Below are positions 6,518 to 41,992 of a stretch of 64,000 bases of DNA, one piece after another. The notes beneath the pieces were generated by a model. That model saw only the letters and a list, made by a program, of their open reading frames with translations. It did not search any database and was not told the origin of the DNA. The stretch is from a virus. Where the stretch lies: positions 32,001 to 96,000 of IMG/VR virus record IMGVR_UViG_3300037313_001714; one strand, written 5' to 3'. Positions within the stretch are counted from its first letter, which is position 1. Each line of letters begins with the position of its first letter. The translations under genes were made by a program, and so were the position numbers.

Positions 6518-6709
6518 TCAAGGCTCCCAGCAGTCGATCTCGTCCTGCACGGCCTGCTTGGGGTCGTCCCAGCGCAGCAGGTCCGGACCCCACAGGTCTT
6601 CCTGCATGCGCGCAGCCTCCTCAGAGGCAGCCAGCGCCGTGTCGTAGCCGCAGTCCGTGCACTCGACGAACTCCATGAAGTAGGCGGCGATCCATTGGTG
6701 GCGGTTCAT
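6518..6709 (-). CDS. Hypothetical acidic protein
   Basis: MNRHQWIAAY...; TGATG coupling. Confidence 0.6.
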   Translation of the reverse strand: MNRHQWIAAYFMEFVECTDCGYDTALAASEEAARMQEDLWGPDLLRWDDPKQAVQDEIDCWEP

Positions 6710-7215
6710 CAGAAGGTCCCCCAGCCGTGCAGCGTGGCGGTGCGCTCGGCATCGAGCGCCCGTGCCTGTTCTTCCAGCTCGCGCTGGCGGGCCTCGCGCT
6801 CGGCGAGCTTTTCCGGCGAGTTGTCGGGCATGTCCTTCACCCGGAAGTCGCCGACGAAGCTCGGGTAGTAGTCGTCGGTGTTGTGCGTGCCGACCTCGAG
6901 GACGACCTTGTCGTTCTCCAGACACACGAACTGCACGGCGTCGTGCGTCGTGCTACCGACCTCTGGCGTCTTCTGCCCGCGCACCCGCACGGGGTGGAAG
7001 CGGTTGATCTGCGGCACGTACGGCACCACCACGATCTCCTTCATGCAGCTGCGGTAGCCGTCCTCCGGGTCCTCGATCGCCTGGTAGCAGACGCCGTCCA
7101 GCTCGAAGGTGATCGTGCTGGCGTCGCCGCCACCGTAGTCGTTTGTGTTGGCGATCTGGGCGGTGTCCACGCCGGTCAGATCGAACTCCTTGCCGACGAA
7201 ATCGTCCAGCGTCAT
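6709..7215 (-). CDS. Hypothetical protein ending GWGTF
   Basis: MTLDDFVGKEF...; TGATG coupling at both ends. Confidence 0.75.
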   Translation of the reverse strand: MTLDDFVGKEFDLTGVDTAQIANTNDYGGGDASTITFELDGVCYQAIEDPEDGYRSCMKEIVVVPYVPQINRFHPVRVRGQKTPEVGSTTHDAVQFVCLENDKVVLEVGTHNTDDYYPSFVGDFRVKDMPDNSPEKLAEREARQRELEEQARALDAERTATLHGWGTF

Positions 7216-7559
7216 CAGAAGGTCCCCCAGCCCTGTTCCACGCGCTCGGCCTGCACGCGGGCTGCTGCCCGCGCCACCTCGCAGCGCGAGGTCGCCAGCG
7301 CGCACAGGGCGCGCGCCACGTCGGTCACGCCTTGTTGGCGGCCGGTGAGCGTGTCGGCGGGCGTGATGACCAGGCCCAACTCCTTCGTGAACCAGCCCTC
7401 CTGCGGTCCGGCCAGGACGTCGTCGTCCGGCGGGTTGGTGTCGAACGGCCAGGGCTTGCGCTTGGACAGCCCTGCCTTGAGGGCCGCGCGGTCGGCGGCC
7501 GCGCGCTGGGCTTCCCCGAACTGCATCAACGCCTCGATGTCATCGGCGAGCTTGCCCAT
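7215..7559 (-). CDS. Hypothetical protein ending GWGTF
   Basis: MGKLADDIEAL...; TGATG coupling. Confidence 0.7.
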   Translation of the reverse strand: MGKLADDIEALMQFGEAQRAAADRAALKAGLSKRKPWPFDTNPPDDDVLAGPQEGWFTKELGLVITPADTLTGRQQGVTDVARALCALATSRCEVARAAARVQAERVEQGWGTF

Positions 7560-7963
7560 CACAGCTCCCTCCAGCCGTTCTCGATCAGCCTGGTGCAGAA
7601 GCTGTCCATCATTTCCTTCGCGTGGGCGGGCGAGGCGCAGCCGCCGTGACTGCGAAAGCCGCGCAGCGGCTTGCTCACGTAGAAGCTCGACTCCTGCATC
7701 TGGCGCTCCACCACCATCGGTTCCTTCTTCCAGAAGAAGCGTCGCTCCATCGGCGGCTTCTCGCGGGCGATGCGGCCCGCCTCGCACATCAGCTCGCTGA
7801 CGTCCTCGCTCACCAGCCCGCTGACGGCCTTCCAGGTCGCGGCGATGCCGGTGGAGAACTGGCTGTCGGTCAGCAGCCCGTTGCGCACGGCCGCCATCAG
7901 CCAGTCGAGCGTTTCGACGGTCTTGCGGTCCAGCTCTTCGCGCACGCTCGGCAGTTGAGTCAC
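7559..7963 (-). CDS. Hypothetical protein, first gene of the leftward small-ORF operon
   Basis: GTG start with GGAAG-like SD; promoter at about 8011-8052. Confidence 0.7.
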   Translation of the reverse strand: MTQLPSVREELDRKTVETLDWLMAAVRNGLLTDSQFSTGIAATWKAVSGLVSEDVSELMCEAGRIAREKPPMERRFFWKKEPMVVERQMQESSFYVSKPLRGFRSHGGCASPAHAKEMMDSFCTRLIENGWREL

Positions 7964-8060
7964 GGGTTACTCTTCCCTGAAAGCGGGCGATACCGCCCGC
8001 GAATGAACGCATCATAGAGAGTTGCGTCAGGAAAGCAAGTCAGCGGTGACTATTGCCGCA

Positions 8061-8699
8061 TCAGTGCACGAGGTGGCTCGAGTGCAGGAAGCCGGAGATG
8101 TTGCTCAACACCTGCATGGTGCGGCCGCAGGCGTTGTCCACGGCCTGCACGCGCTCGTCCAGGTCGGTGAGCAGCCGCGGCAGGTAGAAGTGCGCGCACT
8201 CCAGGCGCGGGTCCACCGTCAGGCCCAGGTACAGGCTGTTCAGGTGCTCGATGAACGCCGGGTTGGCCACCGCCTTGCCGTCGCGGCTCTCCTGCAGCGG
8301 GATGCCTGGCTGCACCAGGATCACGGTGGAGAACCACTTGTTGGTGGCGTCGAAGCAGGCCTGCACGTAGCAGGTGAAGCGGTCCTGCAGCTCCGGCGGC
8401 ACGCTGTCGCCGATCGCCTCGGCCATCGTGTAGCCCAGCATGTCGAGCGGCGTGCGGTCGGTGATCACCGTCAGGCCCGGCGGCGCCTGCGCGTAGAGCT
8501 GCTGCACGCCCGCCAGCACGATCTCTTGCAGCTGCAGGCGCGTGGCGAAGTCATAGCGGCCGGCCGCCGCAGGGTCGTAGCCCGCCGCGCGGATGATCTT
8601 GGACACCGAGGCGTCCAGGTAGACGCCTTCGATGAACTCCGCGTACTTCTTGGCGAGCGTGGTCTTGCCAACGCCCTGCGCGCCGACCAGGCCGATCAC
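8061..8699 (-). CDS. P-loop NMP-kinase-like protein (AAA_28/NadR type)
   Basis: GLVGAQGVGKTT Walker A; ITDRTPLD motif; next to dut and thyX. Confidence 0.75.
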   Translation of the reverse strand: MIGLVGAQGVGKTTLAKKYAEFIEGVYLDASVSKIIRAAGYDPAAAGRYDFATRLQLQEIVLAGVQQLYAQAPPGLTVITDRTPLDMLGYTMAEAIGDSVPPELQDRFTCYVQACFDATNKWFSTVILVQPGIPLQESRDGKAVANPAFIEHLNSLYLGLTVDPRLECAHFYLPRLLTDLDERVQAVDNACGRTMQVLSNISGFLHSSHLVH

Positions 8700-9701: not shown

Positions 9702-9731
9702 GGGAAGCTCCTTTGGGTGACAGGAAAGGGA

Positions 9732-14254: not shown

Positions 14255-14923
14255 TCACCACGCCTGCTCGTCGCTGCCCTCCGGGATGTCATTGGTCGTG
14301 GACTTCTCAACGGTTTCGGCCTTTTTCGCGGACGACAGCAGACCGGCGCCGGTGATCACCCAGGCGCCCTCGAGAAAGGTGTATTCGGTGCCGGTGTTGG
14401 CGTCGTAGAAGCGCGCGCCTTTCACCAGCGTCACGCCGGGCGGCAGCTGGGGCTCCGGCGGCATCGAAACGATCGAGCCGATCCCGCTACCGAGCACTCC
14501 CTTGAAGGCCTCCTTCATGGCCTTTTCGTCGAATTCATCTGTGGAGATGGTCAGCGACGGCATGGTCGGCGCGGCCGCGGTGAGCCTCGGATCGTTGGGC
14601 TCCAGAAACCTATAAGGATTGATGGCCGGCCTCGAAAAAGCCGGCGACGGAATGTCGTGTTTGCAAACGACGCGGTCCTTGCAGGCCGCGCGGATCGTGA
14701 TGACGCGCTGGTCGCGGTGGTAGATGGGCGGATGTTCGTGCTTCGTGATCTCCATGTGCTCGCAGCCTGCACACCCGGGTCGCTCTTCGGCCACCGCGTC
14801 CCGCAGACGCTCTTCGTGGGCCTTCACGCGCTTGGCGAAGTAGTCGCTGCCCTTGAACATGCGCTCGAGGCTTGACTGCGTCACGTCCACCCGCAGGTCT
14901 TGGTCAATCAGTCGCTTGCCCAC
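14255..14923 (-). CDS. Hypothetical protein
   Basis: 222-aa ORF; CxxC; G..FYD..TG..Y.F..GAW module. Confidence 0.65.
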   Translation of the reverse strand: MGKRLIDQDLRVDVTQSSLERMFKGSDYFAKRVKAHEERLRDAVAEERPGCAGCEHMEITKHEHPPIYHRDQRVITIRAACKDRVVCKHDIPSPAFSRPAINPYRFLEPNDPRLTAAAPTMPSLTISTDEFDEKAMKEAFKGVLGSGIGSIVSMPPEPQLPPGVTLVKGARFYDANTGTEYTFLEGAWVITGAGLLSSAKKAETVEKSTTNDIPEGSDEQAW

Positions 14924-15774: not shown

Positions 15775-16413
15775 TCAGAACATCCCGAAGTTGTCGTAGT
15801 CGTCGAACTTGGAGCGGTTGCGCTCCTTCTCTTTGATCTCGCTGGCCTTGCGCGCGAGCGCGTGCAGCTTGTCGGACAGCGTGCTGCCGTCCTCGAACCA
15901 CGTGAGCTGGTCGAAGCCATGCATGTGCGCCAGCGCGTCGTCCACGAACATCTCCATGTGGGCGTACTCGGCGGCCTGCAGCGGCTGGAACTTGATCAGC
16001 ATGCGCTTGCGCTTGCCGATGTAGGCCTCGACCGGCTTGAAGTCCTCGCCGCCCACGTGCGAGACCTTGTGGTAGGTGCCGTTGACGCGGCAGCAGGTCA
16101 GCACCTCCGGGCCGGCCAGCGTGCAGGTGGTGATCGCCTGGTCGGGTTGCGCCGCGAAGTAGGTCGTCAGCTCCTGTGCCAGGTCGGTCAGCTCGGCCTC
16201 CAACAGCATGGCGTCGTCGATGTCGTCGTCGGGTTGAGGTTCGTCCATGGGATTGCTCTTCCATTGAGGGCCGTGAGATGTTTGGACCTTGCGCGACGGC
16301 GCGGGCCGTCGCGGGGCGGCAGCGACCAGCGCCTGGTACTCCGGGTCGTTGGTCGTCATGCCAGGGGTGTTGAGGAACACCTCGAAGGGCGACCTGCCTG
16401 CTGCGCCGGCCAT
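15775..16413 (-). CDS. Hypothetical protein ending NFGMF (start uncertain)
   Basis: Long minus-strand ORF between sbcC and ruvC. Confidence 0.65.
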   Translation of the reverse strand: MAGAAGRSPFEVFLNTPGMTTNDPEYQALVAAAPRRPAPSRKVQTSHGPQWKSNPMDEPQPDDDIDDAMLLEAELTDLAQELTTYFAAQPDQAITTCTLAGPEVLTCCRVNGTYHKVSHVGGEDFKPVEAYIGKRKRMLIKFQPLQAAEYAHMEMFVDDALAHMHGFDQLTWFEDGSTLSDKLHALARKASEIKEKERNRSKFDDYDNFGMF

Positions 16414-16414: not shown

Positions 16415-18361
16415 TCAGAACGTCGCCACCGTGGCGCCCGTGACGGTGGACTTGCCACCGGACTTCGTGACCGTCACCGTCTGGTCGATCCAGTCGCTCA
16501 GCGAGTTGTGGCTGATCACCAGCACCGTGCCGCGCTCCTTCGCCTTGCGGTCGAGCACGCCCATCAGACGCTCCAGCCCGCTCTCGTCCAGCGCGTGGTC
16601 CACCTCGTCGGCGATGAAGATGTTGATCGGCTTGCTGGCGCGCGAGGCCACCAGGTCCTGCAGCGCCAGCGCGGTGGCGATGCGCACCTTGCGCTTTTCG
16701 CCGCCCGACTGCAGCCCGAAGCTGGCGCCGCCGGTGTCGTTGGCGACGGCGATCGAGAACTTCTCCTTCAGCTCACCCTTCGCGTTGGCGGTGAGCGTGC
16801 TCCAGGTCGCGTGCAGGTTCCCGTCGGCCAATGCACCGAGGTACTCACCGGTCTGGTGGTTCAGAAATGGCGTGACGGTGTCGAGAATGTGCGCGCGCAC
16901 GCCCGCAGGCCCGAACACCGCGCATGCGTCTTTGAGCAGCGCGTGGCGCGCTTCGAGCGCGGCGACGGCGCTGATGGCGAGGTTCAGCTTGCCCTCCAGA
17001 TCCTTCACCGCCTTCTCGCGTGCCGGCAGGTGCGGCGTCCACGGGTTGGGCTCGGTGAGCTTGGCCTTCGCATTGGCTTTGGCAGCGGCGATGGCCTCCA
17101 GATGACGCTTGTGCAGGCGCTCCAGGTCGGCGCGCTCGCCCAGCTGGCGGTTGATGTCGGCCAGCTCCGCGGTGGCCGCGCTCACGTCGGTCATGGTTGC
17201 CTTGTGGTCGTCCAGCGCCTTCTGCGCAGCCGCCACTTCCGCCTTCGCAGTGCGTGCAATGCCCACGAAATACCGCAGGTTCGCCTCGATCGCCTTCAGG
17301 TGCTTGGCGCGGTGCTCGCGCAGGCCATCGAGGTCGTGCTCGCTGTACGGCTTGCCGCACTCCGAGCACGCCGTGCCAACCTTGTCGGCGACATACGCCA
17401 GCGCCTGTTTGGCGTCGTCGTAGTTCATCTTGGCGTTGCGCGCGTCACTGCTCGCGACGGCGTCGTGCATGTGGGCCTTACCCAGCGCCCTTTGCAGGCG
17501 CTCCAGCTCGTCCTGCTCGCCCTTCACGCCGGCGATCTGCGCTTCCAGATCGAGCTTGCGCCGCCCGAGCGGCAGCGCCGCGATCGCGGCGATCTTGACT
17601 TGCAGGTCGTTCGCGTTGGCCGTCAGCGCCGGCACGTTGCCAACCTCCGCAGCCGCCCTGCCCTTGCGTCCCGCTTCGAACTCCTTCGCCTGGTCCTGGT
17701 AGTTGGCCAGCGTGTCGCGCGCTGCGTCCAGCTGGATCTGCAGGTGGTCGCGCTCGTTGTAGGCCACCGCCAGGTTCTTCTCGACGGCCGTCGCCTGCTT
17801 GCCCGCTTCGGCGTACGCCGCGGCCAGCTCCTCGACGCCGGCGGCCTCCTCGACCAGGAGCTTGAGGAACTTGTCCGTCATGCCAGGCAGGTCGGGCATC
17901 TGTTCCTGGCCGGCGTAGACGCTGCCCTTGAAGACTTCCAGCGAGCAGCCCATCACCTTGGCGATGACCTCCTGCGTTTCGCGCTCGGTGCCCTTGTGCA
18001 GCGGCGTGCTGGTGCCGCTGGCGTCGATCTGGTGGACAAACAGCGCGTTCTTGTGGACGTTGTGCTTGCGAAAGCGCCAGATTTGGTACGTGATGCCGCC
18101 GTCCTCCAGCAGCACCTTGACGGCGCAGTCCTTCTTGGCCTTGCTGTTGACGATGGCGTCCCCGCTCTCGCCGCGCGCGGTGGTGCCGTACAGGCACCAG
18201 CACAGCGCGTCCACGATCGAGGACTTGCCCGCGCCGTTGGACTTCGCGCTCGAGTCGTCGGCGTTGACACCCTGCACCAGGATCAGGCCACGGTTGTCCA
18301 GCTCCAGATGGGCGTCGCCGATGGCGCAGAAGTTGTGGATGTCCAGTGCCTTGATGTCCAT
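16415..18361 (-). CDS. sbcC: SbcC/Rad50/gp46-like SMC ATPase
   Basis: NGAGKSS Walker A; CSECG Zn hook; QSGGE signature; IADEVD Walker B; coiled coils. Confidence 0.92.
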   Translation of the reverse strand: MDIKALDIHNFCAIGDAHLELDNRGLILVQGVNADDSSAKSNGAGKSSIVDALCWCLYGTTARGESGDAIVNSKAKKDCAVKVLLEDGGITYQIWRFRKHNVHKNALFVHQIDASGTSTPLHKGTERETQEVIAKVMGCSLEVFKGSVYAGQEQMPDLPGMTDKFLKLLVEEAAGVEELAAAYAEAGKQATAVEKNLAVAYNERDHLQIQLDAARDTLANYQDQAKEFEAGRKGRAAAEVGNVPALTANANDLQVKIAAIAALPLGRRKLDLEAQIAGVKGEQDELERLQRALGKAHMHDAVASSDARNAKMNYDDAKQALAYVADKVGTACSECGKPYSEHDLDGLREHRAKHLKAIEANLRYFVGIARTAKAEVAAAQKALDDHKATMTDVSAATAELADINRQLGERADLERLHKRHLEAIAAAKANAKAKLTEPNPWTPHLPAREKAVKDLEGKLNLAISAVAALEARHALLKDACAVFGPAGVRAHILDTVTPFLNHQTGEYLGALADGNLHATWSTLTANAKGELKEKFSIAVANDTGGASFGLQSGGEKRKVRIATALALQDLVASRASKPINIFIADEVDHALDESGLERLMGVLDRKAKERGTVLVISHNSLSDWIDQTVTVTKSGGKSTVTGATVATF

Positions 18362-18729
18362 CAGAACTCCCCGCTCATTTCCGCCTGCTCCTCGCGCAGA
18401 GCGTCGATGGCGCGTTGCGGCACGCGGTAACCCATGGCGCGCATCTGCTCGAGGCGGTCCGCCATCTCACCGGGCGTTGCTGTGATGAAGTCGTCCACGT
18501 GCGGCACGCCCAGTGGCACCATCGTCTCGTGGTCCAGCATCGCCGACACCTTCTGGTGGCGCTCGAGCCATTCCGCCATGTGCTCCTGGTCGAACGACAC
18601 CTCGGGCGGCAGCGGCTCCTTGAAGACGTACTTCAAGCCCGCGACGTGGCACTGCCAGCCGCCCATGCAGCTTTCGTACACGTACACGTCGCACTGGAAG
18701 TCGTCGGTGGAAAAGCGGCAGTAGCTCAT
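18361..18729 (-). CDS. Hypothetical protein ending SGEF
   Basis: MSYCRFSTDDFQCDVYVY...; inserted between sbcD and sbcC with coupled ends. Confidence 0.7.
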   Translation of the reverse strand: MSYCRFSTDDFQCDVYVYESCMGGWQCHVAGLKYVFKEPLPPEVSFDQEHMAEWLERHQKVSAMLDHETMVPLGVPHVDDFITATPGEMADRLEQMRAMGYRVPQRAIDALREEQAEMSGEF

Positions 18730-20292: not shown

Positions 20293-20607
20293 TCAGAACT
20301 CACCCCAGTCGGCGTAGTGGGTGAGCGTCGTGTTCTCTTGCGCAGTGGCCTGCGCCTGCGTCACCGGGCCGTCGGCCACCGGCGGCGCCCACGGCTGATA
20401 CTTTCGCTGGAGCTGCCTGCTTTTTCGAATTTCGTTGTCCAAAAGAATCGAGACTTCCGGACTAAAGAAACGCGCATCTCCGTTTTCATCCTTGCGCGTC
20501 TGCCGCAGCCACACCAAATACCCCGGCGCCTCCTTGAGCAAACTCCCCACCGTCTGGCCCTTGTGCTTCCCGAAGGGCATGGTGTCCGTAAGATGTAGCA
20601 ATCCCAT
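20293..20607 (-). CDS. DUF3820-like protein (MPFGKHKG module) ending DWGEF
   Basis: MPFGKHKG...GYLVWL motif. Confidence 0.7.
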   Translation of the reverse strand: MGLLHLTDTMPFGKHKGQTVGSLLKEAPGYLVWLRQTRKDENGDARFFSPEVSILLDNEIRKSRQLQRKYQPWAPPVADGPVTQAQATAQENTTLTHYADWGEF

Positions 20608-21049: not shown

Positions 21050-22063
21050 TTACGAGCCCAACAAAGCTGTCAGTTTAGGCATAAGAGAGTCGGCCCTAAT
21101 CAGCTCGGCGAAGGCCTTTTTGCTCAACTGTTTGCCGTCCCACTTAACGAAGCCTTTGGTCGGCACTTCGATCTTGCCGGCCTCCATCAAGGATTCAACC
21201 ATCGAATATTCACGGTCGAAATAAGCAGTGCCGTTTTCATCAAAGGACATCCGCATGGCGGTCTCCTTGAACGGCTTAGTGAACTTGGTTTTCACCACCT
21301 GGATGCCGATCTTCTGTGCAACAAATTCCTTGCTGCCATTGACCTGCTGCATGACCTTTTCGCGACCGAGCGCCAGGCGGGCCGACGCATAGAACTCCAT
21401 CGCCTTGCCGCCGGGCGTGGTGCGCGGGTCGCCGTAGACGACACCCGGCTTCAGACGCATCTGGTTGAGGTAGATGAACATGGCGTTGTAACGCTCGGCG
21501 TACATCGCCATCGCTTTGAGCGTCGTGGAGGTGACACGGGCCAGCGCCGTCGTGTCATTCATGTTGTAGTCGGCGAACGGTTTGGTGCCGATGCTGTCGG
21601 GAATGGCTGAGGCGATCGAATCGAAGCCGACCACGATCGGCGCCTCGGGCGCAATCACCTTCTTCTCGCGCAGCCAGTGGCAATACAGCGCAGCGCGGGT
21701 GTTGCCCTGCTCCCACGAATTGTTGGGCGGCCGGTGGTAGTACCAGTAGGGCCGCTCGTCCGACATCTTGTAGCCGTCCTTGGCCAGATCGATGTTGAAG
21801 GTGCGCTCCCAGTCGATGAAGGCGGCCGCGCCACCCATGCGCTGGGCCTGCGCCATCACGTCGGTGAGGATCGCGGTCTTGCCGGTGCCGCTCTCGCCGA
21901 AGATTTCATACATGCGGCCGAACACCCAGCCGCCGTCGTATTTCCCGGTCATCGCCTCGTTGAGCGGCGGGAAGCCGGTGTCCAGATAGACGAGGTTCAA
22001 CCCGTCGTCCTCTTCGGGAAAGGCCTTGTCGAAGTCGGCAATCAATGCTGCGCTGGCACTCAT
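21050..22063 (-). CDS. recA: RecA/UvsX-like recombinase
   Basis: DTGFPPLN, EIFGESGTGKT, FIDWE, FDSIA, LNQMR, TTPGGKAMEFYAS motifs. Confidence 0.93.
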   Translation of the reverse strand: MSASAALIADFDKAFPEEDDGLNLVYLDTGFPPLNEAMTGKYDGGWVFGRMYEIFGESGTGKTAILTDVMAQAQRMGGAAAFIDWERTFNIDLAKDGYKMSDERPYWYYHRPPNNSWEQGNTRAALYCHWLREKKVIAPEAPIVVGFDSIASAIPDSIGTKPFADYNMNDTTALARVTSTTLKAMAMYAERYNAMFIYLNQMRLKPGVVYGDPRTTPGGKAMEFYASARLALGREKVMQQVNGSKEFVAQKIGIQVVKTKFTKPFKETAMRMSFDENGTAYFDREYSMVESLMEAGKIEVPTKGFVKWDGKQLSKKAFAELIRADSLMPKLTALLGS

Positions 22064-23082
22064 GTGGAAAGTTCCTTTGGTTTGAAATGGTCGAGGTAGG
22101 CGTCGAGCTGCTTGAGGATCGAGGCGAAGGCCAGCTCCTCGCAGATCGCGGCGAAGGCCTCGGGATCGAAGCAGCCCTTGTCGACATGGATGTCGGCGGG
22201 GTTGGGTGGCGTGACCTTCAGCAGCTGCATGAGCTGGAAGTTGCGCCGGAAGATGGCGCGACCCTGGCCGGGCCAGGCGTCCTGGTGTTTCTTGAGCGCC
22301 TTCGCGTCGGTCGGGTCGCCCGCATACAGCGCGGCCCAGGCCTCCTTGTCGTGCTCGCACTCGCCCCGCCACAAGCTCTTTTCGGCCTTGCTCTTGGGCT
22401 TGTACGCGCCGCTGTCGCACTGACGCCAGAACTCGCGCACGCTGCCGAAGGTGGCGATCAGCTCGATCGCGCCCTTCTCGCCGATGCCGCCCACGCCGCT
22501 GATGACGTCCGAGCTGTCGCCCATGAGACATTTGCGCTCGAGGAACTGCAGCGGCGTGCGGCAGCCCGTCCATTCGTAGAAGTTGCGGGCCGTGACCAGG
22601 CGCGAGCCGTCGCGCATGTCGCGCCAGAAGACGTTGCGCCGCACGAACTGCAGCCAGTCACCGTCGCCGGTGATGCAGCCGATGCGGTGACGCGGATCGA
22701 CGCTGAGCTTGCGCACGAAGTGGCCGGCCAGGTCGTCGGCCTCGTGAGTGAACGCCGTGATCTGGCGGATGCCCAGGTGCCGCAGCAGACCCTGGATGTA
22801 GGGCTTCTGGCTGGCGTAGGCCTCCTTCATGGCCACCCGCTCGGGCGTCGAGCGCCGGTTGCTCTTGTAGTCCGGGTGCAGCGCGAAGCGCCACTCGGCG
22901 CGGCCGTCCCACAGCACCAGCGGCGTCGCGCCGGGATAGTCCTGGCGCAGCGTGCGCATGTCGATCAGCATCCCGTAGGCGGCCTGCGTGGGCTGGCTGC
23001 CCGAGGTCAGCTTGGTGGCTTGCTGCCAGGCGTAGCCCAGCGCATTGCCGTCCACCAGCAACGTGAACTTGTCGTAGTTCAT
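22060..23082 (-). CDS. 5'-3' exonuclease / flap endonuclease (T4 RNase H-like)
   Basis: VDGN, EADD, TGDGD, MGDSSD.I.GVGGIGEKGA (H3TH). Confidence 0.9.
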   Translation of the reverse strand: MNYDKFTLLVDGNALGYAWQQATKLTSGSQPTQAAYGMLIDMRTLRQDYPGATPLVLWDGRAEWRFALHPDYKSNRRSTPERVAMKEAYASQKPYIQGLLRHLGIRQITAFTHEADDLAGHFVRKLSVDPRHRIGCITGDGDWLQFVRRNVFWRDMRDGSRLVTARNFYEWTGCRTPLQFLERKCLMGDSSDVISGVGGIGEKGAIELIATFGSVREFWRQCDSGAYKPKSKAEKSLWRGECEHDKEAWAALYAGDPTDAKALKKHQDAWPGQGRAIFRRNFQLMQLLKVTPPNPADIHVDKGCFDPEAFAAICEELAFASILKQLDAYLDHFKPKELST

Positions 23083-23088
23083 GAACAA

Positions 23089-23170
23089 GGAGGTCGCGTG
23101 TGGGACTCGAACCCACCTGGCGGAGCGAAGCGGGAAGCTCCGCGGGCCTCACCCGAAGCCGAACGCGACC
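23089..23170 (-). ncRNA. tRNA-like RNA with tRNA-Sec-type 8/5 fold, 6-bp D stem, possible UCC (Gly) anticodon, U discriminator
   Basis: GGTCGCGT/ACGCGACC 8-bp acceptor; GTGGG-TTCGAGT-CCCAC T arm; GGCTTC-GGGT-GAGGCC D arm; GCGGAG-CTTCCCG-CTTCGC anticodon arm; ends ...ACC-T-CC(T); fills the SSB-exonuclease intergenic gap. Confidence 0.7.
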
Positions 23171-23179
23171 GTGTCCGCT

Positions 23180-24022
23180 TTACGCGGTCGTGTCGATGTC
23201 GCCCAGCAGGTCGTCCAGCTCGGCGTCGAGGGCGACACCGGCGTCCGGTGCAGTGCGGGCGGCGCCCGCGGCGCCGTTGCCGTTCACGCGCGCGCCGATC
23301 GGGGCGGCCGCCGGACGCGGCAGGGCCGTGGTCGGGGTCGCGGGCGCTGCGCCCGGTGCCGGCAGCAGGCCAGCGACCGTGTTCAGGGCCGCCAGGGCGC
23401 GCTGCTCGCCCTCGGTGCTGTCCTGCTTCACGTAGTCATCCAGGTCCGTCACCTTGTCCTGCACAGCCTTCGGGATCGGCGTGCCAGGCTTCATGCTCAT
23501 GGTGGTGGTGTAGCGCGTGTTCAGACCCGTGCCTTCGCGGTTCACGACGATTTCGTGCCCCTTCTCGGGGTCCAACACGGCTTCCGCGCCGTTCTCGATG
23601 ATCATTTCGAAGATTTGCGTCAGCACCTGCTGCGCCACTTTCGTCACCTTCGGCGTGTTGGGCTCGGACGAGTCCAGGTGCAGCGCGTTGACGAGGTGTT
23701 CCTTGCTGGACTTGGACTTCGCGAGGACTTCGGTTGTGGTGTCGTCCGGGGCGCTGGCGATCAGCGCGCGCAGCGCGTTGCAGGTGTTGCACGGCTTGCC
23801 GTCGGTGGCAGCGGCGCAGACATAGACGGCCTGGAGTTCATCGGCCGCGTTCTTGATGAAGTGCTGGCCGAAGTCGCGCCAGAACTGCTCGGGGTTCTTC
23901 GGGTTCCAGCCGGCGAACAGCCGGATGCGGTTCTTGCCTTGGTTGAAGCCGGCGGCGCGCTCGATGCGCTTCATGGCTTGTTTCTTGGAGGCGATCAGGG
24001 CAGCGATTTTTGCGGCGTCCAT
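23180..24022 (-). CDS. T4 gp32-like single-stranded DNA-binding protein
   Basis: RIRLF..W, QHF, C..CNTC Zn site, REGTGLNTRY, acidic tail DAELDDLLGDID; sits in recA/exonuclease module. Confidence 0.7.
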   Translation of the reverse strand: MDAAKIAALIASKKQAMKRIERAAGFNQGKNRIRLFAGWNPKNPEQFWRDFGQHFIKNAADELQAVYVCAAATDGKPCNTCNALRALIASAPDDTTTEVLAKSKSSKEHLVNALHLDSSEPNTPKVTKVAQQVLTQIFEMIIENGAEAVLDPEKGHEIVVNREGTGLNTRYTTTMSMKPGTPIPKAVQDKVTDLDDYVKQDSTEGEQRALAALNTVAGLLPAPGAAPATPTTALPRPAAAPIGARVNGNGAAGAARTAPDAGVALDAELDDLLGDIDTTA

Positions 24023-24157
24023 GTGGTGTGTGACAGCAGTAAAGAGGTTGAAGAGATGGCAGGTTTGCAGGTGCTTCTCGACGCGGTCGCCCGCGTCAAT
24101 CGCACCCGACATTATACCTCACCGGTGACTTACTGACGAGCCCGAGTCCGCGGGCCT

Positions 24158-25288
24158 TCAGGAGCCCGCGCGGGCTGCGTGCAAGGCCTGCACCACGCGC
24201 ACCGGCCCCTTGCTTTCCTCGCGCCGGTCGGCGCCGATCTGGATCAGCATGTCGCGCCGGTCGTTGAGCGACGCCACCAGGCTCTTGTTGATGCTGGCGA
24301 TGGTCTCGGCCTCCACCACCCGGTTCTTGATCGCGAGCCACAGCGGGTCTGTCTTGACGGCGCTCTCCACCGCCTTCTCGGTGACCTTCTCGCCGCCCGC
24401 GGCAGCCTTCGCGGCCAGGATCTTGCGGTGCTTCTCGTACAGCTGCGCCTCCTTCACTTCGGCCTGCAGCTTCACGCGGTCGGCCTGGGCCTCCGCGTTG
24501 GCCGCGAACTGCCCGTAGGTGGCGCGCAGGCTGTTCTGCTGCATCATGGCGTCGCTCAGGTTGGTGTCGCTGATCGCCGTCTCGCGCTTGAACTCGTCCA
24601 CGTCGATGGAAAAACGCAGGCCCGGGGCGACGCGCGGGTTGTGCGTGTCGGGTTCGGCGGGCGGCTTGCTGGCTTCGCTCGCCAGGCCGGTGCCCTCGTC
24701 CTTCTCGATCTCCGCGATGGCAGCGGCCGCTTCGGCCGCCTCGTTCGCTGCGGCCACCGGGGTAGCCGGGGCGGCGGGCGTTGCTGCAGCCGCCTTGCGC
24801 GTGCGCACGATGGTCTGCACCGCGACGAACGCCGACTGGTACTCGCTGCTCGCCTGGCCGTAGATGCCGGCGATGTCCTTGAGCTTGGCCTTCATCTGCT
24901 CGCCGGTCATCGGCGACCAGTCGGGCATCGTGAAAGCCGGCAGGCCCAGCGCTTCGCCGGTGCTCGGATCGTCCTCCCACGGCAGCGGGTCGGCGATGGG
25001 TGTGACCTTCTCGGGCACGACGAAGTTGGAGGGCTCGGGCGCGGCATGGGCGGCGTCGGCGATGATCGCGTCCACCTTCTGCGCGGCCGTCACGCGCTGC
25101 GACTTCAGCGCCTCGGGCGGCAGCTCGGGCTGCTCGCGCTTGGCCGGCGCGGCGACGGCAGCGGCCGCCTCCTCGACGACCACCGCGGCCGGTGCCGCGG
25201 GCGCATCGACCGCGCCGGCAGTCTCGAGTTCCAGCTCCGCCATGATGGCGTCCAGCTCCGGGTCGTTCATTTCGATTTCGCGTGCCAT
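24158..25288 (-). CDS. UvsY-like recombination mediator with long low-complexity N-terminus
   Basis: Helical C-terminal domain (TEKAVESAVKTDP...R.DML.Q.G...R.E) upstream of SSB and RecA. Confidence 0.5.
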   Translation of the reverse strand: MAREIEMNDPELDAIMAELELETAGAVDAPAAPAAVVVEEAAAAVAAPAKREQPELPPEALKSQRVTAAQKVDAIIADAAHAAPEPSNFVVPEKVTPIADPLPWEDDPSTGEALGLPAFTMPDWSPMTGEQMKAKLKDIAGIYGQASSEYQSAFVAVQTIVRTRKAAAATPAAPATPVAAANEAAEAAAAIAEIEKDEGTGLASEASKPPAEPDTHNPRVAPGLRFSIDVDEFKRETAISDTNLSDAMMQQNSLRATYGQFAANAEAQADRVKLQAEVKEAQLYEKHRKILAAKAAAGGEKVTEKAVESAVKTDPLWLAIKNRVVEAETIASINKSLVASLNDRRDMLIQIGADRREESKGPVRVVQALHAARAGS

Positions 25289-25392
25289 GTTGCGTGTGCT
25301 CCGTGTTGCGTGTGCAGGTTGCAGGTTTGAGGGTCTGACTGTAGCCCGAATGGGCAGGAAAAGATGCGTCACGGGTGACTGAGTGAAACTGC

Positions 25393-28300
25393 CTAAGAAA
25401 CGATCTCGTGAACGGTCTTGAACACCTCCTTCAAGGCGTCGTACTTGCTCGGGTCGAAGTTGATCTGTTGCGGGTTCAGGCCGCACACGATGGTGGCGGC
25501 CAGCGCCGCGTCGTAGATGGTCTTGCCCACCATCTCCGCGCCCTTGGCGCCCGGGATGAAGCGGCGGATCGCTGCTGAGCCCAGCGCCACGATCACCGGC
25601 GGCTTGATGACTTCCAGCTCGCGGGTGAGGAACTGGCTGCAGCCGTTGATCTGGTCGTTGGAGAGGAACTTGTCGTTCTTCTTGGCCTTCACGAGCGTGG
25701 TGTAGTAGCCGTCACCGGGCTGCAGGCCGGCATCGCGGATGGCTTCCTTCACCCAGCCGGCGGCCTCGCCCTCCAGCAGCTTGTCGGCCTTTTCCTCTTC
25801 CCAGCTCGGGCAGTCGGCCACCACCATGAACTTCACGTTGGACTTCATGCGCGCCTGCGGATGCGGCCGGCCGGCCAGGTCGCAGTCGCCGCACTTGCGG
25901 TACTCCTGCACGATGTGGATCACCTTCGCGCGCACGAACTTGTCGGTGACGTCCGTGGTGCGGTCGGCCTTGACGTTGTCGATGATCAGGCCTGGCATCA
26001 GCTCGGTCTGGTCGCGCCGGCGGTCCGGGTGGCGCGCCGGCTTCTCGGTCGGGTCGATGCTGGCCAGTGCGCCGACGAGTTTGAGGCGCTCGCGGTGCGT
26101 GATCGTGATCTTGCTGCCCTTGACGCTGGTCACTGCCTCGAAGTGCGCGGCGCTGGTGAAGCGGCCGCCGGCGGCGGCGCGGTGGGCCATGAGCTTGTGC
26201 GCCGTGTTGTCGCTCAGGCCCTTGACGGCGCTGAACGGTGCCAGGATGTGCGTGTCGTCGGGAATGGTGAAGCGCTCGGTGGACAGGTTGATGTCCGGCG
26301 GCAGGATCTCGATGCCCGCCTCGCGCGCGTCCTTGACCAGGCCCGCGAGCTTGTCCTCCTTGACGATCGACAGGCAGGCAGCGAAGTATTCGGCCGGGTA
26401 GCGCACGCGCAGCCACATGGTCCAGTAGCTGATGATGGAATACTCGACCGCGTGCGAGCGGTTGAAGCCGTAGCCGGCGAACGCCTCGATCTTGTCGAAC
26501 AGCGCGCCCGCGATCGCGGCATCCATGCCCGAGTGCTTCTCGCAGCCCTCCACCCAGGCCTTGCGCTGCTCGGCCATCTTGACCTTGTCCTTCTTGCCCA
26601 TCGCCTTGCGCAGGTGGTCGGCGCCGGCGCGGGAAAAGCCGGCCAGGTCGATCGCCAGCTGCATCACCTGCTCCTGGTAGACGATGACCGAGTAGGTGGA
26701 CTCGAGCGCCGCCTCCATGTTCGGGTGCTCGTAGCTGGGCGTGAGCATGCCCTGTTTGATCGCCACGAAGTCGTCCATCAGGCCCGAGTCCATCGGGCCG
26801 GGCCGGTACAGGGCGGTGGCCGCGGTGATGTCCTCGAAGGTGAGCGGTCCACCCTTGCGCAGCTCGCGCAGCAGCTTGCGCATGCCAGGCGACTCGAACT
26901 GGAAGACGCCCGTGGTGTCGCCGCGCCCGAAGGCGTCCATCACGTCCGGGTCCTCGAGCGGCAGATCGGTGTAGGTGACGTCGACGCCGTGCCGGCCCTT
27001 GATGTACTGCCGTGCGATCTCCAGCACGTCGAGCGTGGACAGGCCCAGCACGTCCATCTTGACCAGGCCCCAGTCCTCCACCGTGCGCTTGTCCCAGGAC
27101 ACCACCGGCAGGCCTTCATCCGTCTCGCTGCGCGTCTCCACGACCGCGCGCTCGTGCAGCGGCACGCCGCCGATCACCACGCCCCCGGCGTGCTGGCCGA
27201 ACGAGCGCATCACGCCTTCGAGCTTCAGCGCGTGGCCCCAGATGTGCGGATGGTTCAGGCGGAACTTGTCGATCTCGGGGATCGCTTTGGCGGCTTCCTC
27301 GAGGGTGGCCGACACGCCCTGCTCCTTTGGCACCAGCTTGGTCGGACTCAGCTCCAGGTTGGACAGCTCGTGCACCCGGCCCGCGTCCCTCAGCGCCGAT
27401 GCGGAGGCGAGCGTCGAAAAGTTGCTGACACCGGCCACCCGGTCGGCACCGTGGCGGCCGACCAGGTACTGGAAGACCTCGTGCCGCCGGCTCGTCTGGA
27501 AGTCCAGGTCCGCGTCCGGGAGGTCGAGGCGTTCAGGGTTAATGAACCGCTCGAACAGCAGGTTGAAACGGATAGGGTCCACCTCGGTGATCCCAAGGAG
27601 GTAGGCAACGAGACTGCCACCAACCGATCCCCGACCGGGACCAACAATGATGCCATTGGCTTTGCTCCAGTTCACGAGGTCCGCGACCAGCAGGAAGTAG
27701 CCGGCGAAGCCCATCTTTTTCAGGACCGCCAGCTCGTAGTTCAAGCGCTCGCGGTACTTGGGCAGGTCGGCGATCGACGGCTGGTGGCCCATGACGCGGC
27801 GGCCGAAGCGCCTACCCCAGCCCGCGATGCACAGCCTGCCCAGCTCCATGAACTCGTTGGTCGCCATGGTGGGCAGCGACACCGGCAGCTTCGCGAACTC
27901 CCACCTGCAGGCGTCGGCCAGGTGCTGGGTGTTGACCAACCCCCTGGCGAACAGGGTGGCGATCTCATGCTTGCTCAGACCCGTGTTTCCCCACTTCTCC
28001 GCACGGTCCACCGCGCCGCTCAGACGTAGTCGCAGCGTCGCAGCCGGCTTGAAGCCGAAGTCGCGCACGAACTGGCGCGGGCGGTGCCGCGTGTCCATCT
28101 TGTACTGCCCCGACGAGCAGATCGTCTGCAAGACCTCCAGCGTGGGTGCGTCTGCGTCGTCGCGGTACAGAAACGGATAGGTGACAAGGGTGCGCGCAGC
28201 GTGCGTGTGCGCTGCCTTCAGCGCGCGCGCGTTGAGCGTGTCGAACAGCGGCGTGTCGATCGGCGCCAGTTCGACATAGACGCGCTCGCGGCTGAACTTC

Positions 28301-28788
28301 GCGATCAGCCGCTGCAGGATCGCGTCGGCCTCCTGGTGGTGCCACAGGCTGTTGAAGTCGCCGGTGGACACAAGCACGTCCTCGAGCGCGAACACCTGCT
28401 CCCAGCCGGTGCGCGCGTGGTAGTAGAACTGCTCGCGCGAGTTGGCCGCCGACAGCAGCTTCATCAGGCTCGTGATGCCGCGCTCGCCCGCCACGTAGAC
28501 CTTGATGCACACGTGCGGGTTCGGCTTGTCCTCGATGCCGCTGTTCTTGGCCGGCTTCTTCCACAGCGGGTCGTCGTAGACGCGCAGGCGGCAGCCGACG
28601 ATCGGCTTGATGCCGGCTTTCTTGCACTTCGTGGTGAAGTCCACCAGCGAGTGGATCGACATCGTGTCCACCAGCGCGACCGACTCGTAGCCGTGCCGCT
28701 GGGCCTCCTCGATGATGTGGTCCGTCTGCAGCAGCGACTCGCCGATGCTGAAGTCGCTGCGCACGGACAGCGCGTGGTTGATGCTCAT
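25393..28788 (-). CDS. dnaE: DNA polymerase III alpha subunit (C family) with C-terminal family-4 UDG-like domain
   Basis: PHP domain; GPGRGS, FERFINPER.DLPDADLDF, HAGGVV, KMDVLGL, GVFQFES, ALYRPGP, GYGFNRSH; C-term CGDCDL...VVADCPS...VKAK...C...E...IKP.VIVALG. Confidence 0.95.
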   Translation of the reverse strand: MSINHALSVRSDFSIGESLLQTDHIIEEAQRHGYESVALVDTMSIHSLVDFTTKCKKAGIKPIVGCRLRVYDDPLWKKPAKNSGIEDKPNPHVCIKVYVAGERGITSLMKLLSAANSREQFYYHARTGWEQVFALEDVLVSTGDFNSLWHHQEADAILQRLIAKFSRERVYVELAPIDTPLFDTLNARALKAAHTHAARTLVTYPFLYRDDADAPTLEVLQTICSSGQYKMDTRHRPRQFVRDFGFKPAATLRLRLSGAVDRAEKWGNTGLSKHEIATLFARGLVNTQHLADACRWEFAKLPVSLPTMATNEFMELGRLCIAGWGRRFGRRVMGHQPSIADLPKYRERLNYELAVLKKMGFAGYFLLVADLVNWSKANGIIVGPGRGSVGGSLVAYLLGITEVDPIRFNLLFERFINPERLDLPDADLDFQTSRRHEVFQYLVGRHGADRVAGVSNFSTLASASALRDAGRVHELSNLELSPTKLVPKEQGVSATLEEAAKAIPEIDKFRLNHPHIWGHALKLEGVMRSFGQHAGGVVIGGVPLHERAVVETRSETDEGLPVVSWDKRTVEDWGLVKMDVLGLSTLDVLEIARQYIKGRHGVDVTYTDLPLEDPDVMDAFGRGDTTGVFQFESPGMRKLLRELRKGGPLTFEDITAATALYRPGPMDSGLMDDFVAIKQGMLTPSYEHPNMEAALESTYSVIVYQEQVMQLAIDLAGFSRAGADHLRKAMGKKDKVKMAEQRKAWVEGCEKHSGMDAAIAGALFDKIEAFAGYGFNRSHAVEYSIISYWTMWLRVRYPAEYFAACLSIVKEDKLAGLVKDAREAGIEILPPDINLSTERFTIPDDTHILAPFSAVKGLSDNTAHKLMAHRAAAGGRFTSAAHFEAVTSVKGSKITITHRERLKLVGALASIDPTEKPARHPDRRRDQTELMPGLIIDNVKADRTTDVTDKFVRAKVIHIVQEYRKCGDCDLAGRPHPQARMKSNVKFMVVADCPSWEEEKADKLLEGEAAGWVKEAIRDAGLQPGDGYYTTLVKAKKNDKFLSNDQINGCSQFLTRELEVIKPPVIVALGSAAIRRFIPGAKGAEMVGKTIYDAALAATIVCGLNPQQINFDPSKYDALKEVFKTVHEIVS

Positions 28789-32522: not shown

Positions 32523-34496
32523 TTACTTGGCGCCCTGGACGATCAGGCCGCGCAGCGTCTTCATGACAGCGGCCGGCAGCTCCTCGACGTTGTTCAGGAC
32601 CATGTTCTTCGGATAGAACTCCTGCACGGCCTCCGACTGGATGCCGATGCCCACCACGCTCACGCCGGTGTGCATCAGGTCCTTGACCACCCGCTTCAAG
32701 TGGCCCTTGAGCGCTGCCGGGTCGCCGTGCGCGGCGGGGTAGCCGTCGCTCAGCACGATCATCACCTTGCCGCTCTCGCGGCGCGCCAGCAGCATGCGCC
32801 CGGCGATCATCACGCTCTCGCCGTCGACGTTGCTGTTCATGGCGCTGGAGTTGGGCATCCAGCCGAAGCGCTTTTTCACCTCCGTGCCCATGCGCTCGTT
32901 GAAGCCTTTGAGGATCGGCATGTAGAGCGACTCCATGCGGCTGTAGCGCACGCTGTGCGCCTTCTTGCCCTTGCGCGCGGCGCTGATCTTCTCGGCTTCT
33001 TCCTCGAGTTCGGTGTAGCTGGCGACCATCGGCCCGGTCGTGAAGCACACGCACATGCTGGGGATGCCGATGCGCTCCAGGGTGCTGGCAAGCGCGTACG
33101 CCGCCTGCACCGCAGTGTGGACCTTGCTGCCGTGCATCGAGCCGGAGATGTCCACCACCAGCATCGCTGCGACGTCCTTGCTGGACGACTCGTGCTTCTT
33201 GCGGAAGACCCGGTCGTCGTAGCCGGCGGGCGTGTGGATCGCCAGACGCGACAGGTTCGCCGGGTGCAGCCGGCCGCTGCGCAGCCCCGACGACCACGTC
33301 GCCAGCGAGCGGGCGCTGATGGCGCGCTCCAGGTCCTTCTGCATGGGCCCCACCATGTGGTCCACCTTGTCCTGCAGATTGGTGAGCATCTCCGGCTTGT
33401 AGCCCGAGCCGATGTGCAGCGGCTCGATGACGTCCTTGTCGGTGGAGTAGACGAGGTAGTCGGCGTCGGCCGCCGCTGCGGCGCTGACGTCGGTGATCTC
33501 GGCGGAGACGCTGGCGTCGAAGTCGTTGGCGGTTTCCTTGTCGATCGCCTTCCAGGTCGCCGGGTCCATCCCGACGGTCATCTCCTCTGCGCCCGCGCCG
33601 GTGTCCTCGTCTTCGTCACCGTCCTCGCCGTCATCGTCCTTGTCGGCGTCGTCGTCCTTGTCCTTGTCGTCCGCGTCGTCCTCGGGCGGCGGGGGCGGCG
33701 CGTCGTCATCGTCGGGTGCGGCCGCCTTGGTCTTCAGGTCGCCGTCCTCGTCGTCATCCTTCGGCGGCGCAGCGGGACGCCGGCCCTTGCCCTTGCCGCC
33801 GGCGCGGCCACCGCGGCCGCTGCCCTTGGCTGGCTTGCCGCTCTCCTCCTCGTCGTCGTCGTCGCTGCCGCGCAGGCGCTTCACGACCTCCCGCGCCAGC
33901 GCCAGGGCCTCCGCGGTGTCGGCGCAGTTCTCGATCTTGCCGGCCAGGTCCTTGAGCTTGTCGTACAGCGGCTGCACGATCCCGCTGTGGCCGTCGATGA
34001 AGTCCTTCATCTCGTCCTGGCCTGCCAGCGCACGCACCAGCGGCACCGTGAGCACGCCGATCGCCGTGTCGGTGTCGCCGCCGGCGATGGCGGCCTCCAG
34101 CTTGGGGGTGATGTACTTGTCGAGGAAGAAGCGCCGCGTCTGGCTCAGGTTGTGGGCGCTGCCCTCGAAGCGCTTCGCCATCTCGCGCTCGATGCGGCAG
34201 TCCTCGACGATGTTGAGCATGTTGGCCACGCTCGCATCGCCGATCGTGGGCATCACCTTGAAGTCGGTGAACAGGATGTGCGCGACCTCGTGGTCGAGGA
34301 AGCCCTGCAGCGCGTTGATCAGCTGCTCGGTGGCGTTGTCGGGCAGATACGGCAGGTTGACCTGGACCGGACGGCCATCTGGGTCACTGCGTACATACGC
34401 GGAAACTCCCTGCTGAGTTACTTGGACCCCCTTGCCGGCCAGCATTTGTGTCAATTTGACAATGGACTGGCGCAGCACGAACACGCGATCGTTCAT
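32523..34496 (-). CDS. CobT-like vWA-domain protein (partner of MoxR AAA+)
   Basis: FLDHEVAH, VEDCRIE N-domain; acidic linker; VDISGSM MIDAS, VDGES, VLSDG.P. Confidence 0.88.
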   Translation of the reverse strand: MNDRVFVLRQSIVKLTQMLAGKGVQVTQQGVSAYVRSDPDGRPVQVNLPYLPDNATEQLINALQGFLDHEVAHILFTDFKVMPTIGDASVANMLNIVEDCRIEREMAKRFEGSAHNLSQTRRFFLDKYITPKLEAAIAGGDTDTAIGVLTVPLVRALAGQDEMKDFIDGHSGIVQPLYDKLKDLAGKIENCADTAEALALAREVVKRLRGSDDDDEEESGKPAKGSGRGGRAGGKGKGRRPAAPPKDDDEDGDLKTKAAAPDDDDAPPPPPEDDADDKDKDDDADKDDDGEDGDEDEDTGAGAEEMTVGMDPATWKAIDKETANDFDASVSAEITDVSAAAAADADYLVYSTDKDVIEPLHIGSGYKPEMLTNLQDKVDHMVGPMQKDLERAISARSLATWSSGLRSGRLHPANLSRLAIHTPAGYDDRVFRKKHESSSKDVAAMLVVDISGSMHGSKVHTAVQAAYALASTLERIGIPSMCVCFTTGPMVASYTELEEEAEKISAARKGKKAHSVRYSRMESLYMPILKGFNERMGTEVKKRFGWMPNSSAMNSNVDGESVMIAGRMLLARRESGKVMIVLSDGYPAAHGDPAALKGHLKRVVKDLMHTGVSVVGIGIQSEAVQEFYPKNMVLNNVEELPAAVMKTLRGLIVQGAK

Positions 34497-35627: not shown

Positions 35628-35654
35628 AACCATACGTGCCTTCCTGACCATTCG

Positions 35655-40705: not shown

Positions 40706-41319
40706 TTGCCTTCCTTCTTGAGTGCGGCGAGCCGCATGGCGCGGGCGCGCGGGGTTTCACCTGGCAGCGCGGCCAGTGGTGCGAATGCCTTGTGGGCGCC
40801 TTCCTTCGAGAAGGCGGGTTCGGTCGCAATCGCCGTGTGCAGGTCGATCTCCTCTTTCGAGAGGCCCGACGCGGCCTGGGCCTGCTTCAGCTCGGCGTTG
40901 ATCGCGTCCGCGAAGCCGCCGGTGTCGATGTGTCCGGTGCGCTTGTCGGGCACCTTCACGTGCTCGCTGTGGTACGGGTCCGCGCGCTGCGCGATGTCCT
41001 TTTCTGCGCGGTTCGCATCGGTGGGCTCGCGACTCCAGGCGGGCGCACGCACCGCGTTGCCGGCGGTGTCGCGCGGCAGAAAGTACAGCGCCTCGCCAGC
41101 GAGTTCTTCGGTCTGGCGCATGGTCACGGCCTGGCAGGTGCCCAGCCGGATCGCTTCGTTGCAGGCGGGCCAGACCTCGCGCGCCCTGCCCTCCTTGACC
41201 AGGCGCATCTTGTCCAGGCACGCGGCGTAGGCCGGGTTGTGCTCGGTGATGCGGCAGTGCCCGAGGTAGTAGGCGTTCTTGCCGGACAGCGACGCCGAGA
41301 GTGGGTGCTTGTCGCTCAT
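40702..41319 (-). CDS. Hypothetical protein with Cys/His N-domain
   Basis: MSDKHPLSAS...GKNAYY..HC...C...C...C. Confidence 0.65.
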   Translation of the reverse strand: MSDKHPLSASLSGKNAYYLGHCRITEHNPAYAACLDKMRLVKEGRAREVWPACNEAIRLGTCQAVTMRQTEELAGEALYFLPRDTAGNAVRAPAWSREPTDANRAEKDIAQRADPYHSEHVKVPDKRTGHIDTGGFADAINAELKQAQAASGLSKEEIDLHTAIATEPAFSKEGAHKAFAPLAALPGETPRARAMRLAALKKEGK

Positions 41320-41498
41320 AGCAGTCCCGCCAACGTGAGCGCCTTCTCGACCACCAGATACAGCGACCAAAGGCCGCCCGTGAAGATGGCGAAGGTGGTC
41401 GACCAGAAGCCGTGTGCGAGCACGATGCCCGCCACCCACATGACGAGGTAGGCCACACTGAGCACGCTCTCCACGAGCACAGTTGCAAATCGAATCAT
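41316..41498 (-). CDS. Small membrane protein
   Basis: MIRFATVLVES...; TGATG coupling. Confidence 0.6.
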   Translation of the reverse strand: MIRFATVLVESVLSVAYLVMWVAGIVLAHGFWSTTFAIFTGGLWSLYLVVEKALTLAGLL

Positions 41499-41992
41499 CA
41501 GAAAGTCCCCCATGCATCGCCGCGGTCGACGGTCTCGTCGAACACGGGTTCAGCCTTCGTCACCGGTGACGTATCCGTAGCGGCCATAGTGATGCCGCCA
41601 ATCCATTTCGTGATCTGGTTCACCAAGTCCGAGCTGGCGTAGTGATGCTGAACTTTCTCCAGCACCTCGGACGGCTTGTGCACGTTGTCGCCCGACATCT
41701 GGTGCAGGCTATGGGTGGTGGGCACCACCTTGTAGCCCTTGGTCGAGGACATCTTTTGCTTGAGGATCTTCTTGCGCTCGCCTTCGCACAGCATCAGCGT
41801 GCCGCTGTGAACTTGGCAGTCCTTGCCGCCAGTGTTGGCATGGGCCCACGGGCCCCAGCGCTTGATCAGCATGGCGCCGGTGCACTCACTCTCGCCTCTG
41901 AAGTTGATCTCGATCTTCTTCAGCAGGACGGTCTCGTAGAACTTCGTGCCGCCTTCGTGCCGCAGAAAGTAGGTCTCGACTTGGATGCCCAT
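41498..41992 (-). CDS. WGR-domain-like protein ending AWGTF
   Basis: TKFYE...LIKRWG......G...........K...KM..TKGY pattern. Confidence 0.6.
   Translation of the reverse strand: MGIQVETYFLRHEGGTKFYETVLLKKIEINFRGESECTGAMLIKRWGPWAHANTGGKDCQVHSGTLMLCEGERKKILKQKMSSTKGYKVVPTTHSLHQMSGDNVHKPSEVLEKVQHHYASSDLVNQITKWIGGITMAATDTSPVTKAEPVFDETVDRGDAWGTF

Follow-up and report, generated by a model that had tools for sequence, protein, structure and literature searches.

In phage T4, the interchangeable C-terminal tails of gp43, gp55 and gp33 bind the sliding clamp gp45 (PMC2988020). A terminal aromatic with a free carboxylate is reported to serve for docking in replication and recombination at the C-terminal tip of the single-stranded DNA-binding protein SSB (DDDIPF) and on the tails of T7 gp2.5 and gp4, which are acidic and end in Phe (PMC9917605, PMC12339929), and in the MoxR AAA+/vWA pairs CobST, CbbQO and NorQD the vWA protein has been described as capturing an extended client peptide (PMC7159879; bioRxiv 10.64898/2026.10.09.757910). 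Here we describe a short C-terminal tag, built from two aromatic residues around an invariant Gly, that recurs on otherwise unrelated small proteins in a 64,000-nucleotide stretch (hereafter the window; bases 32001-96000) of the virus record IMGVR_UViG_3300037313_001714, a complete genome of 118,453 bp with direct terminal repeats and 66.7% G+C whose genes lie nearly all on the minus strand. Literature searches found no published description of such a tail. Our preferred interpretation, held with moderate confidence, is that the tag is a docking or address label recognised by one common partner.

Among the 172 genes of a codon-usage gene call on the complete 118,453-bp genome (G000), the pattern [WFY]G.[FW] directly before a stop codon occurs six times, against 0.05 expected from composition (P ~2e-11) and 0.07 expected if termini matched at the rate seen inside proteins; the strict form WG[TE]F occurs four times at C-termini and never internally. 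A preliminary description of the window had proposed a shared [W/F/S]-G-x-F tail on six proteins with unrelated bodies, at a frequency that could be checked against chance. All six C-termini translate as it gave them, from minus-strand open reading frames (ORFs; Table 1), BLASTP between carriers aligns the tails alone and not the bodies, and the frequency lies far above chance also for its own pattern (6 observed, 0.045 expected). When ORFs of at least 50 amino acids were counted in 65 related loci, 85 on the coding strand ended in the motif versus 0 of 2,584 on the opposite strand. The tag is real, strictly terminal and specific to the SSU5-like phage group, within which its wording is lineage-specific. 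What had to be amended was the wording: a shared tail stands, but Ser at position -3 does not, because the true -3 residue is aromatic and the MSGEF end of p122 is a degenerate tag private to this phage, so that the motif is better written as [W/F/Y]-G-x-[F/W]-COOH. The ATF end of the SbcC-like ATPase, which had been mentioned beside these tails, was dropped, since its orthologues end RGF or HGF in the closest clade only and KAA, VAA and others elsewhere. The NrdB-like proteins of relatives, which end in acidic Phe tails (GGALDLDF, ADDEF) that we take to be the ordinary R2-to-R1 tail, were also left out of the count.

Orthologue tails, read by extending tblastn matches in the 65 related loci to stop codons, keep the tag in 30/30 (p212), 13/13 (p104), 2/2 (p164) and 1/1 (p168) cases. 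The p212 orthologues end in [FY]G[SAT]W at body identities of 26-46%, those of p104 in WG[ASV][FW] with varying codons, the p164 homologues (41% and 31% identity) in LWGSF and AWGAF, and the sole p168 orthologue in these loci in RWGSF; across p212, p104 and p168, body identity of the tail-keeping orthologues is 26-50%. In two complete relatives (G001 and G002), p164 orthologues end SWGSW and EWGSW. Among 27 distinct p212 DNA tails, Gly never changes although encoded by GGC, GGA and GGG, and neither does Trp; Ser is spelled by six codons that span the two Ser boxes, each of the three stop codons occurs, and the DNA beyond the stop varies. Because the tail is kept with synonymous codons, all stops and varied downstream DNA, and occurs on one strand, purifying selection acts on the tail peptide and not on the DNA.

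The tag is also portable: in three protein families, the tail occurs on members from this phage or from SSU5-like phages related to it and on no others. One is the p168 family, in which 109 of the ~120 listed clusters stop at the end of the conserved beta domain (...YYPSFV..F.PENM..N), and about a dozen listed clusters continue into a charged helix that is followed by an aromatic tail, for example GWGSF, NWGTF, GWASW, GWATW, LFGKF or DWQTW. Of its 80 members on viral contigs, 74, from many phage types, are untagged; the tagged ones lie on three ~110-113-kb contigs that also encode an SbcC relative (L100-L102), on CobT-positive records of 112 kb and 85 kb (G006 and G007; L099, L155) and on a 40-kb fragment (L103). 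In the p122 family (1,203 matches), the best 150 representatives all lack F or W as their last residue, the ...SGEF end being confined, against those 150, to the copy in this phage, and orthologues in D3-like Pseudomonas phages end EEGIA, EEGSE and EEGEA. The third case is a 62-amino-acid structural-module protein with an Ala-Trp (AW) tail, of the second class described below, in this phage only. With untagged families outside and tagged copies here, it follows that genes entering this phage lineage acquire the tail.

Tail wording was compared across five complete relatives and set beside a quick SbcC tree. A 115,042-bp relative carries eight NPxFG[RM]F tails and another complete relative NPxWG[IM]F tails; the two closest complete relatives have WGSW, FGSW and xDAW tails, and a relative of 41% G+C has LGSW, IESW and IVEW tails. 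NP-prefixed F-type tails (NPx-aromatic-G-x-F) form one clade of the SbcC tree (support 99), and a separate clade holds aromatic-G-[SAT]-W and WG[AS]F. The genome studied here groups with genomes that have FG[SA]W at the end of p212 and WGSW at the end of p164; in it both proteins end in F, a joint switch in two families that hints, weakly, at a co-evolving reader.

A second tail, P-E-[GTA]-S-x(1-3)-[DE]-A-W, terminates eight proteins of the genome ([DEGQ]AW ends: 8 observed, 0.085 expected). One carrier, p222, lies in the window and was absent from the preliminary list, and five lie in a plus-strand array behind a UvsW-like helicase; counted beyond the window, the further termini are KFGGW, VGAF and seven more ...AW tails. 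The two classes grade into each other, because one AW carrier ends ...GGAW and its orthologues end VGAW and FGAW. Two adjacent AW-tail genes outside the window share 30 identical bp (P ~0.01 given the peptide), behind which gene conversion may lie.

In the AF2 model of p168 (predicted local distance difference test, pLDDT, 92.6), residues 1-124 form a beta-sandwich and residues 134-164 a single long helix, and the last four residues, the tag, are exposed as the coil that ends this 30-residue helix. On our reading, the tag is a short linear motif that is portable between proteins and caps the free end of a stalk, flexible or helical; its carriers are otherwise unrelated accessory proteins, encoded among the early, replication and recombination genes. 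A single partner would recognise both aromatic side chains around the Gly, probably together with the free carboxyl end, and recognition would gather the carriers in one place or handle them as one group. We infer that this reader is a conserved phage-encoded core protein, either part of the replisome or recombination machinery or the MoxR-vWA motor, and not a host protein; in our ranking, a phage core replication/recombination protein or the MoxR-vWA motor stands before a host hub, and a host hub before a protease. Several points weigh against a common docking partner. No binding partner of the tag was identified in this sequence-based analysis, and a degron would give the same sequence signature. 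The carrier p114 is an ORFan with no homologue but itself among 5.8 billion proteins, so the conservation of its tail cannot be assessed, and F- and W-ended tags coexist within many single genomes, which makes co-variation of wording and reader suggestive at most.

If there is one reader, its identity would place many proteins without assigned function in one shared pathway at once. In ~110-kb phages and phage-plasmids, a group that includes SSU5 relatives from Salmonella, Klebsiella and E. coli, each genome has 5 to 15 tagged proteins that otherwise resist annotation. Finding the reader would also show how newly captured genes plug into phage machinery through an added tail. Shared docking tails organise phage replisomes and transcription, as the T4 clamp tails and the acidic T7 tails exemplify, and the four-residue peptide offers a handle for pull-downs.

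An alternative interpretation is that the tag is a by-product at the DNA level, either of a ribosome-binding site and a stop/start overlap lodged in the 3' end of the gene or of a copied recombination cassette. The preliminary description had pointed to an identical 20-bp string at 6707 and 7213 and to four TGATG-coupled stops, and had suggested spread by recombination at a tail cassette. Both features are present: the 20-mer occurs exactly in two copies and with 3 mismatches in another (0.02 expected from shuffles), and TGATG stops mark 4 of 6 carriers versus 22 of 172 genes genome-wide. Codon choice is equally skewed, with GGG as the tag Gly codon in 5 of 6 carriers versus 8.6% of Gly codons genome-wide, and GGA, 2.5% of Gly codons in the genome, in the AW tails. 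Through these codons a ribosome-binding site, GGGG or GGAG, arises 5-10 nt ahead of the start of the coupled gene that follows, and the tag Gly codon thereby doubles as that gene's ribosome-binding site. Such skews, the real 20-bp identity and the 30-bp identity of the neighbouring AW-tail genes would all be expected of a DNA-level origin, but orthologues hold the peptide with other codons, other stops and uncoupled downstream DNA. The usual overlap in this genome is ATGA/GTGA (54 cases), which a terminal Phe codon cannot join, so the TGATG excess, and with it the coupling, is a consequence of the peptide. The 20-bp identity spans exactly the G-W-G-T-F codons, the stop and the TG of the next ATG, and stops there; given the peptide and codon bias, identical codons are expected at a probability of 0.14-0.2, and no homology was found flanking the repeat. 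Recombination is therefore not needed within the window, and the repeat is best read, from its codons and flanks, as one peptide encoded twice with biased codons and with a ribosome-binding site inside it, rather than a recombination cassette. We consider a DNA-level cause extremely improbable and reject it on the orthologue and codon evidence, while retaining it as an overlay on codon choice. Of the phage-wide C-terminal interaction code originally envisaged, a phage-wide, selected peptide on unrelated proteins survives; its spread through a tail cassette is not supported in this window, since identity ends at the tag codons, the flanks are unrelated and the tags are old within their protein families.

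Among the closest described systems, the T4 clamp tails likewise place a short tail on several unrelated phage proteins, a tail which in T4 is hydrophobic, sits on a flexible linker and docks on one hub; here, however, a clamp gene was undetected, an invariant Gly separates two aromatics, and the carriers are more numerous and mostly of unassigned function. The beta-clamp motif QL[SD]LF is also a short Phe-ended peptide common to many replication and repair proteins, but the tag has neither Gln nor a Leu-Phe pair, occurs at the C-terminus only, a restriction not shared by clamp motifs, which also work at internal or N-terminal sites, and varies in wording by lineage (WGTF, WGEF and FGMF here, FGSW in orthologues), so clamp-motif wording does not describe it. 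With SSB and T7 tails the tag shares a terminal aromatic with a free carboxylate, and the second class (...PEGSDEQAW) is acidic as theirs are. Yet what precedes the main-class tag is H, Q, G, N or A and no acidic run, the second class (PEGSDEQAW, SQDAW) lacks the Pro-Phe end of SSB tips, and the phage's own gp32-like SSB ends ...GDIDTTA; the topology also differs, many tails going to one presumed reader where SSB offers one hub tail to many partners. The tag is thus best interpreted as acting like T4 clamp tails and Phe-ended SSB/T7 tails, though without their wording or a detected clamp gene. The present analysis contributes the three cases of tail acquisition, the evidence from codons, the overlay of ribosome-binding sites and, for the window, the rejection of a cassette.

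Another alternative is that the reader is a host hub approached by docking-peptide mimicry, namely the beta sliding clamp, which the phage DnaE would need, or the pockets that bind SSB tips. The phage encodes a Pol III alpha-like DnaE, yet no Pfam match to the DnaN N- or C-terminal domains or to the gp45 N-terminal domain was found in the complete genome (DnaN controls were positive), although a very divergent phage clamp could be missed by Pfam profiles. The acidic second class with its terminal aromatic resembles DDDIPF, and all known hosts of the phage group are Proteobacteria. We consider this unlikely because, besides its divergence from QL[SD]LF and its strictly terminal position, the tag differs strongly in wording between phage clades, although the beta-clamp pocket is highly conserved across bacteria. 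A C-terminal degron, through which a host or phage AAA+ protease or unfoldase would remove or remodel early proteins together, is likewise doubtful. Such degrons are well established (ClpXP, for instance, recognises the ssrA tag, ...LAA), and the tag resembles them, in sequence and model, as a terminal, transferable peptide exposed at the end of a stalk and carried by many small early proteins. Its wording, however, is unrelated to that of known bacterial C-terminal degrons, it is retained on proteins that the whole group conserves (p212 beside SbcC, in 30 loci, is one), and no protease gene is linked to it.

A more specific form of docking would make the tag a client label for the CobS/CobT-like MoxR-vWA motor that the phage itself encodes, in which the vWA adhesion site that depends on a metal ion (MIDAS) or the AAA+ ring would hold a dozen unrelated early proteins by their aromatic-Gly-aromatic carboxyl end and the motor would remodel or deliver these clients. 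If true, this would give a function to the widespread, unexplained 'cobalt chelatase' genes of phages and mark the tag as a protein-sorting code private to the virus. All 7 relatives tested carry the pair, and its MIDAS (DxSGS) is intact in six genomes, as in the described MoxR/vWA systems, but the known client peptides of those systems do not resemble the tag, and no specific tie between pair and tag was found, the pair being a core gene. CobT is absent from 23 phages with untagged p168 relatives; none of the 23 is SSU5-like, and named phages with CobT-like genes are almost all SSU5-like. Co-occurrence with CobT does not discriminate, because the pair is inseparable from phage-group membership, and Roseobacter phage CRP-810 has CobS/CobT and no recurrent tail. 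We regard this form as quite improbable.

Two further records bear on CobS/CobT-bearing phages. The cobavirus podovirus T5S1-k141_653015 (L183, PQ867845.1, 4067-14989), which also carries CobS/CobT, has a different recurrent tail, [ILV]-P-x-E-F-[LFM]-x, on 14 of 47 plus-strand early-region proteins (59-74 amino acids) scattered among replication genes; these carriers are at least partly paralogues, and some share the N-terminus MKLYDG. In Xanthomonas phage JGB6 (L184, OQ436456.1), many short coding sequences stand in place of intact DnaE, helicase, SbcC-like and other genes; the record looks like an error-rich assembly rather than gene decay, and its apparent CobT poverty is unusable as a natural knockout.

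Table 1 Tag carriers and other features of the locus. Coordinates refer to the window unless a genome position is given; RBS, ribosome-binding site.
Feature	Position	Strand	C-terminal end	Tag codons	Remarks
p168	6709..7215	-	HGWGTF	6712-6723 (WGTF)	site listed for GGG codon/RBS
p114	7215..7559	-	QGWGTF	7218-7229	ORFan; site listed for GGG codon/RBS
p222	14255..14923	-	...NDIPEGSDEQAW (...PEGSDEQAW)		second tail class
p212	15775..16413	-	DNFGMF	15778-15789	just downstream of SbcC; site listed for GGG codon/RBS
SbcC-like ATPase	16415..18361	-	ATF		phrog_77, E 1e-119; excluded as carrier
p122	18361..18729	-	MSGEF	18364-18375	phrog_13573, E 6e-38; between SbcD and SbcC; site listed for GGG codon/RBS
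p104	20293..20607	-	DWGEF	20296-20307	weak ExoX-C/DUF-like N-terminal motif
Replication/recombination core	21050..28788	-			UvsX-like recombinase, FEN, gp32-like SSB, helical p376, DnaE-UDG; core in G001-G005; candidate readers
DnaE	25393-28788	-			PHP, Pol III alpha, fingers, HhH; UDG-superfamily domain fused at C-terminus
CobS-like MoxR AAA+	31189-32406	-			Pfam AAA_5/CbbQ_C; candidate reader
CobT-like vWA	32523-34496	-			Pfam CobT_C/VWA; candidate reader
p164	41498..41992	-	AWGTF	41501-41512	downstream of primase gene; site listed for GGG codon/RBS
Hfq/Sm-like protein, 123 aa	44794-45165	-			adjoins DnaB-like helicase gene
20-mer, exact	6707-6726				
20-mer, exact	7213-7232				
20-mer, 3 mismatches	41496-41515				
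AW-tail array	G000 genome 9144-11117 (L180:9144-11117)	+			before window
AW carrier	genome 30372-30812		...GGAW		

The tag carriers lie in a T4-style replication/recombination module that encodes a DnaE (Pol III alpha)-UDG-like fusion, a gp32-like SSB, a 5'-3' exonuclease, a UvsX-like recombinase, SbcD, SbcC, a RuvC-like resolvase, ribonucleotide reductase, ligase, primase, a DnaB-like helicase and the CobS/CobT-like MoxR-vWA pair. SbcC and the CobT-like protein match 105-120-kb SSU5 / RHEph10 / nickie phages and phage-plasmids at 36-46% identity, 65 uncultured viral contigs were also matched (39-55% identity), and 39 genes are common to 4 or 5 of the 5 complete relatives (G001-G005). These matches, the shared genes and the SbcC tree agree in placing the genome, by sequence comparison, in the ~105-120 kb SSU5 / RHEph10 / nickie supergroup.

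Within this module, the canonical clamp-binding pentapeptide was not seen between DnaE and its fused UDG domain. The 376-amino-acid protein p376, encoded beside DnaE, was considered as a phage clamp and rejected because it is all-helical; its C-terminal hairpin gives generic helical matches only, with T4 UvsY (Z 8.6) inside the noise. A fold search with the p168 domain returned no PDB match at E <= 0.001, and an Atlas search with p212 no usable match. Phages and prophages commonly carry the p168 beta-sandwich domain (~120 clusters listed). The Hfq/Sm-like protein beside the DnaB-like helicase falls, as far as the gene calls show, outside the 39 genes common to at least 4 of 5 relatives. In many relatives (L004-L068), the sequence ...TAAGTCA... 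directly follows the stop of the RuvC-like gene.

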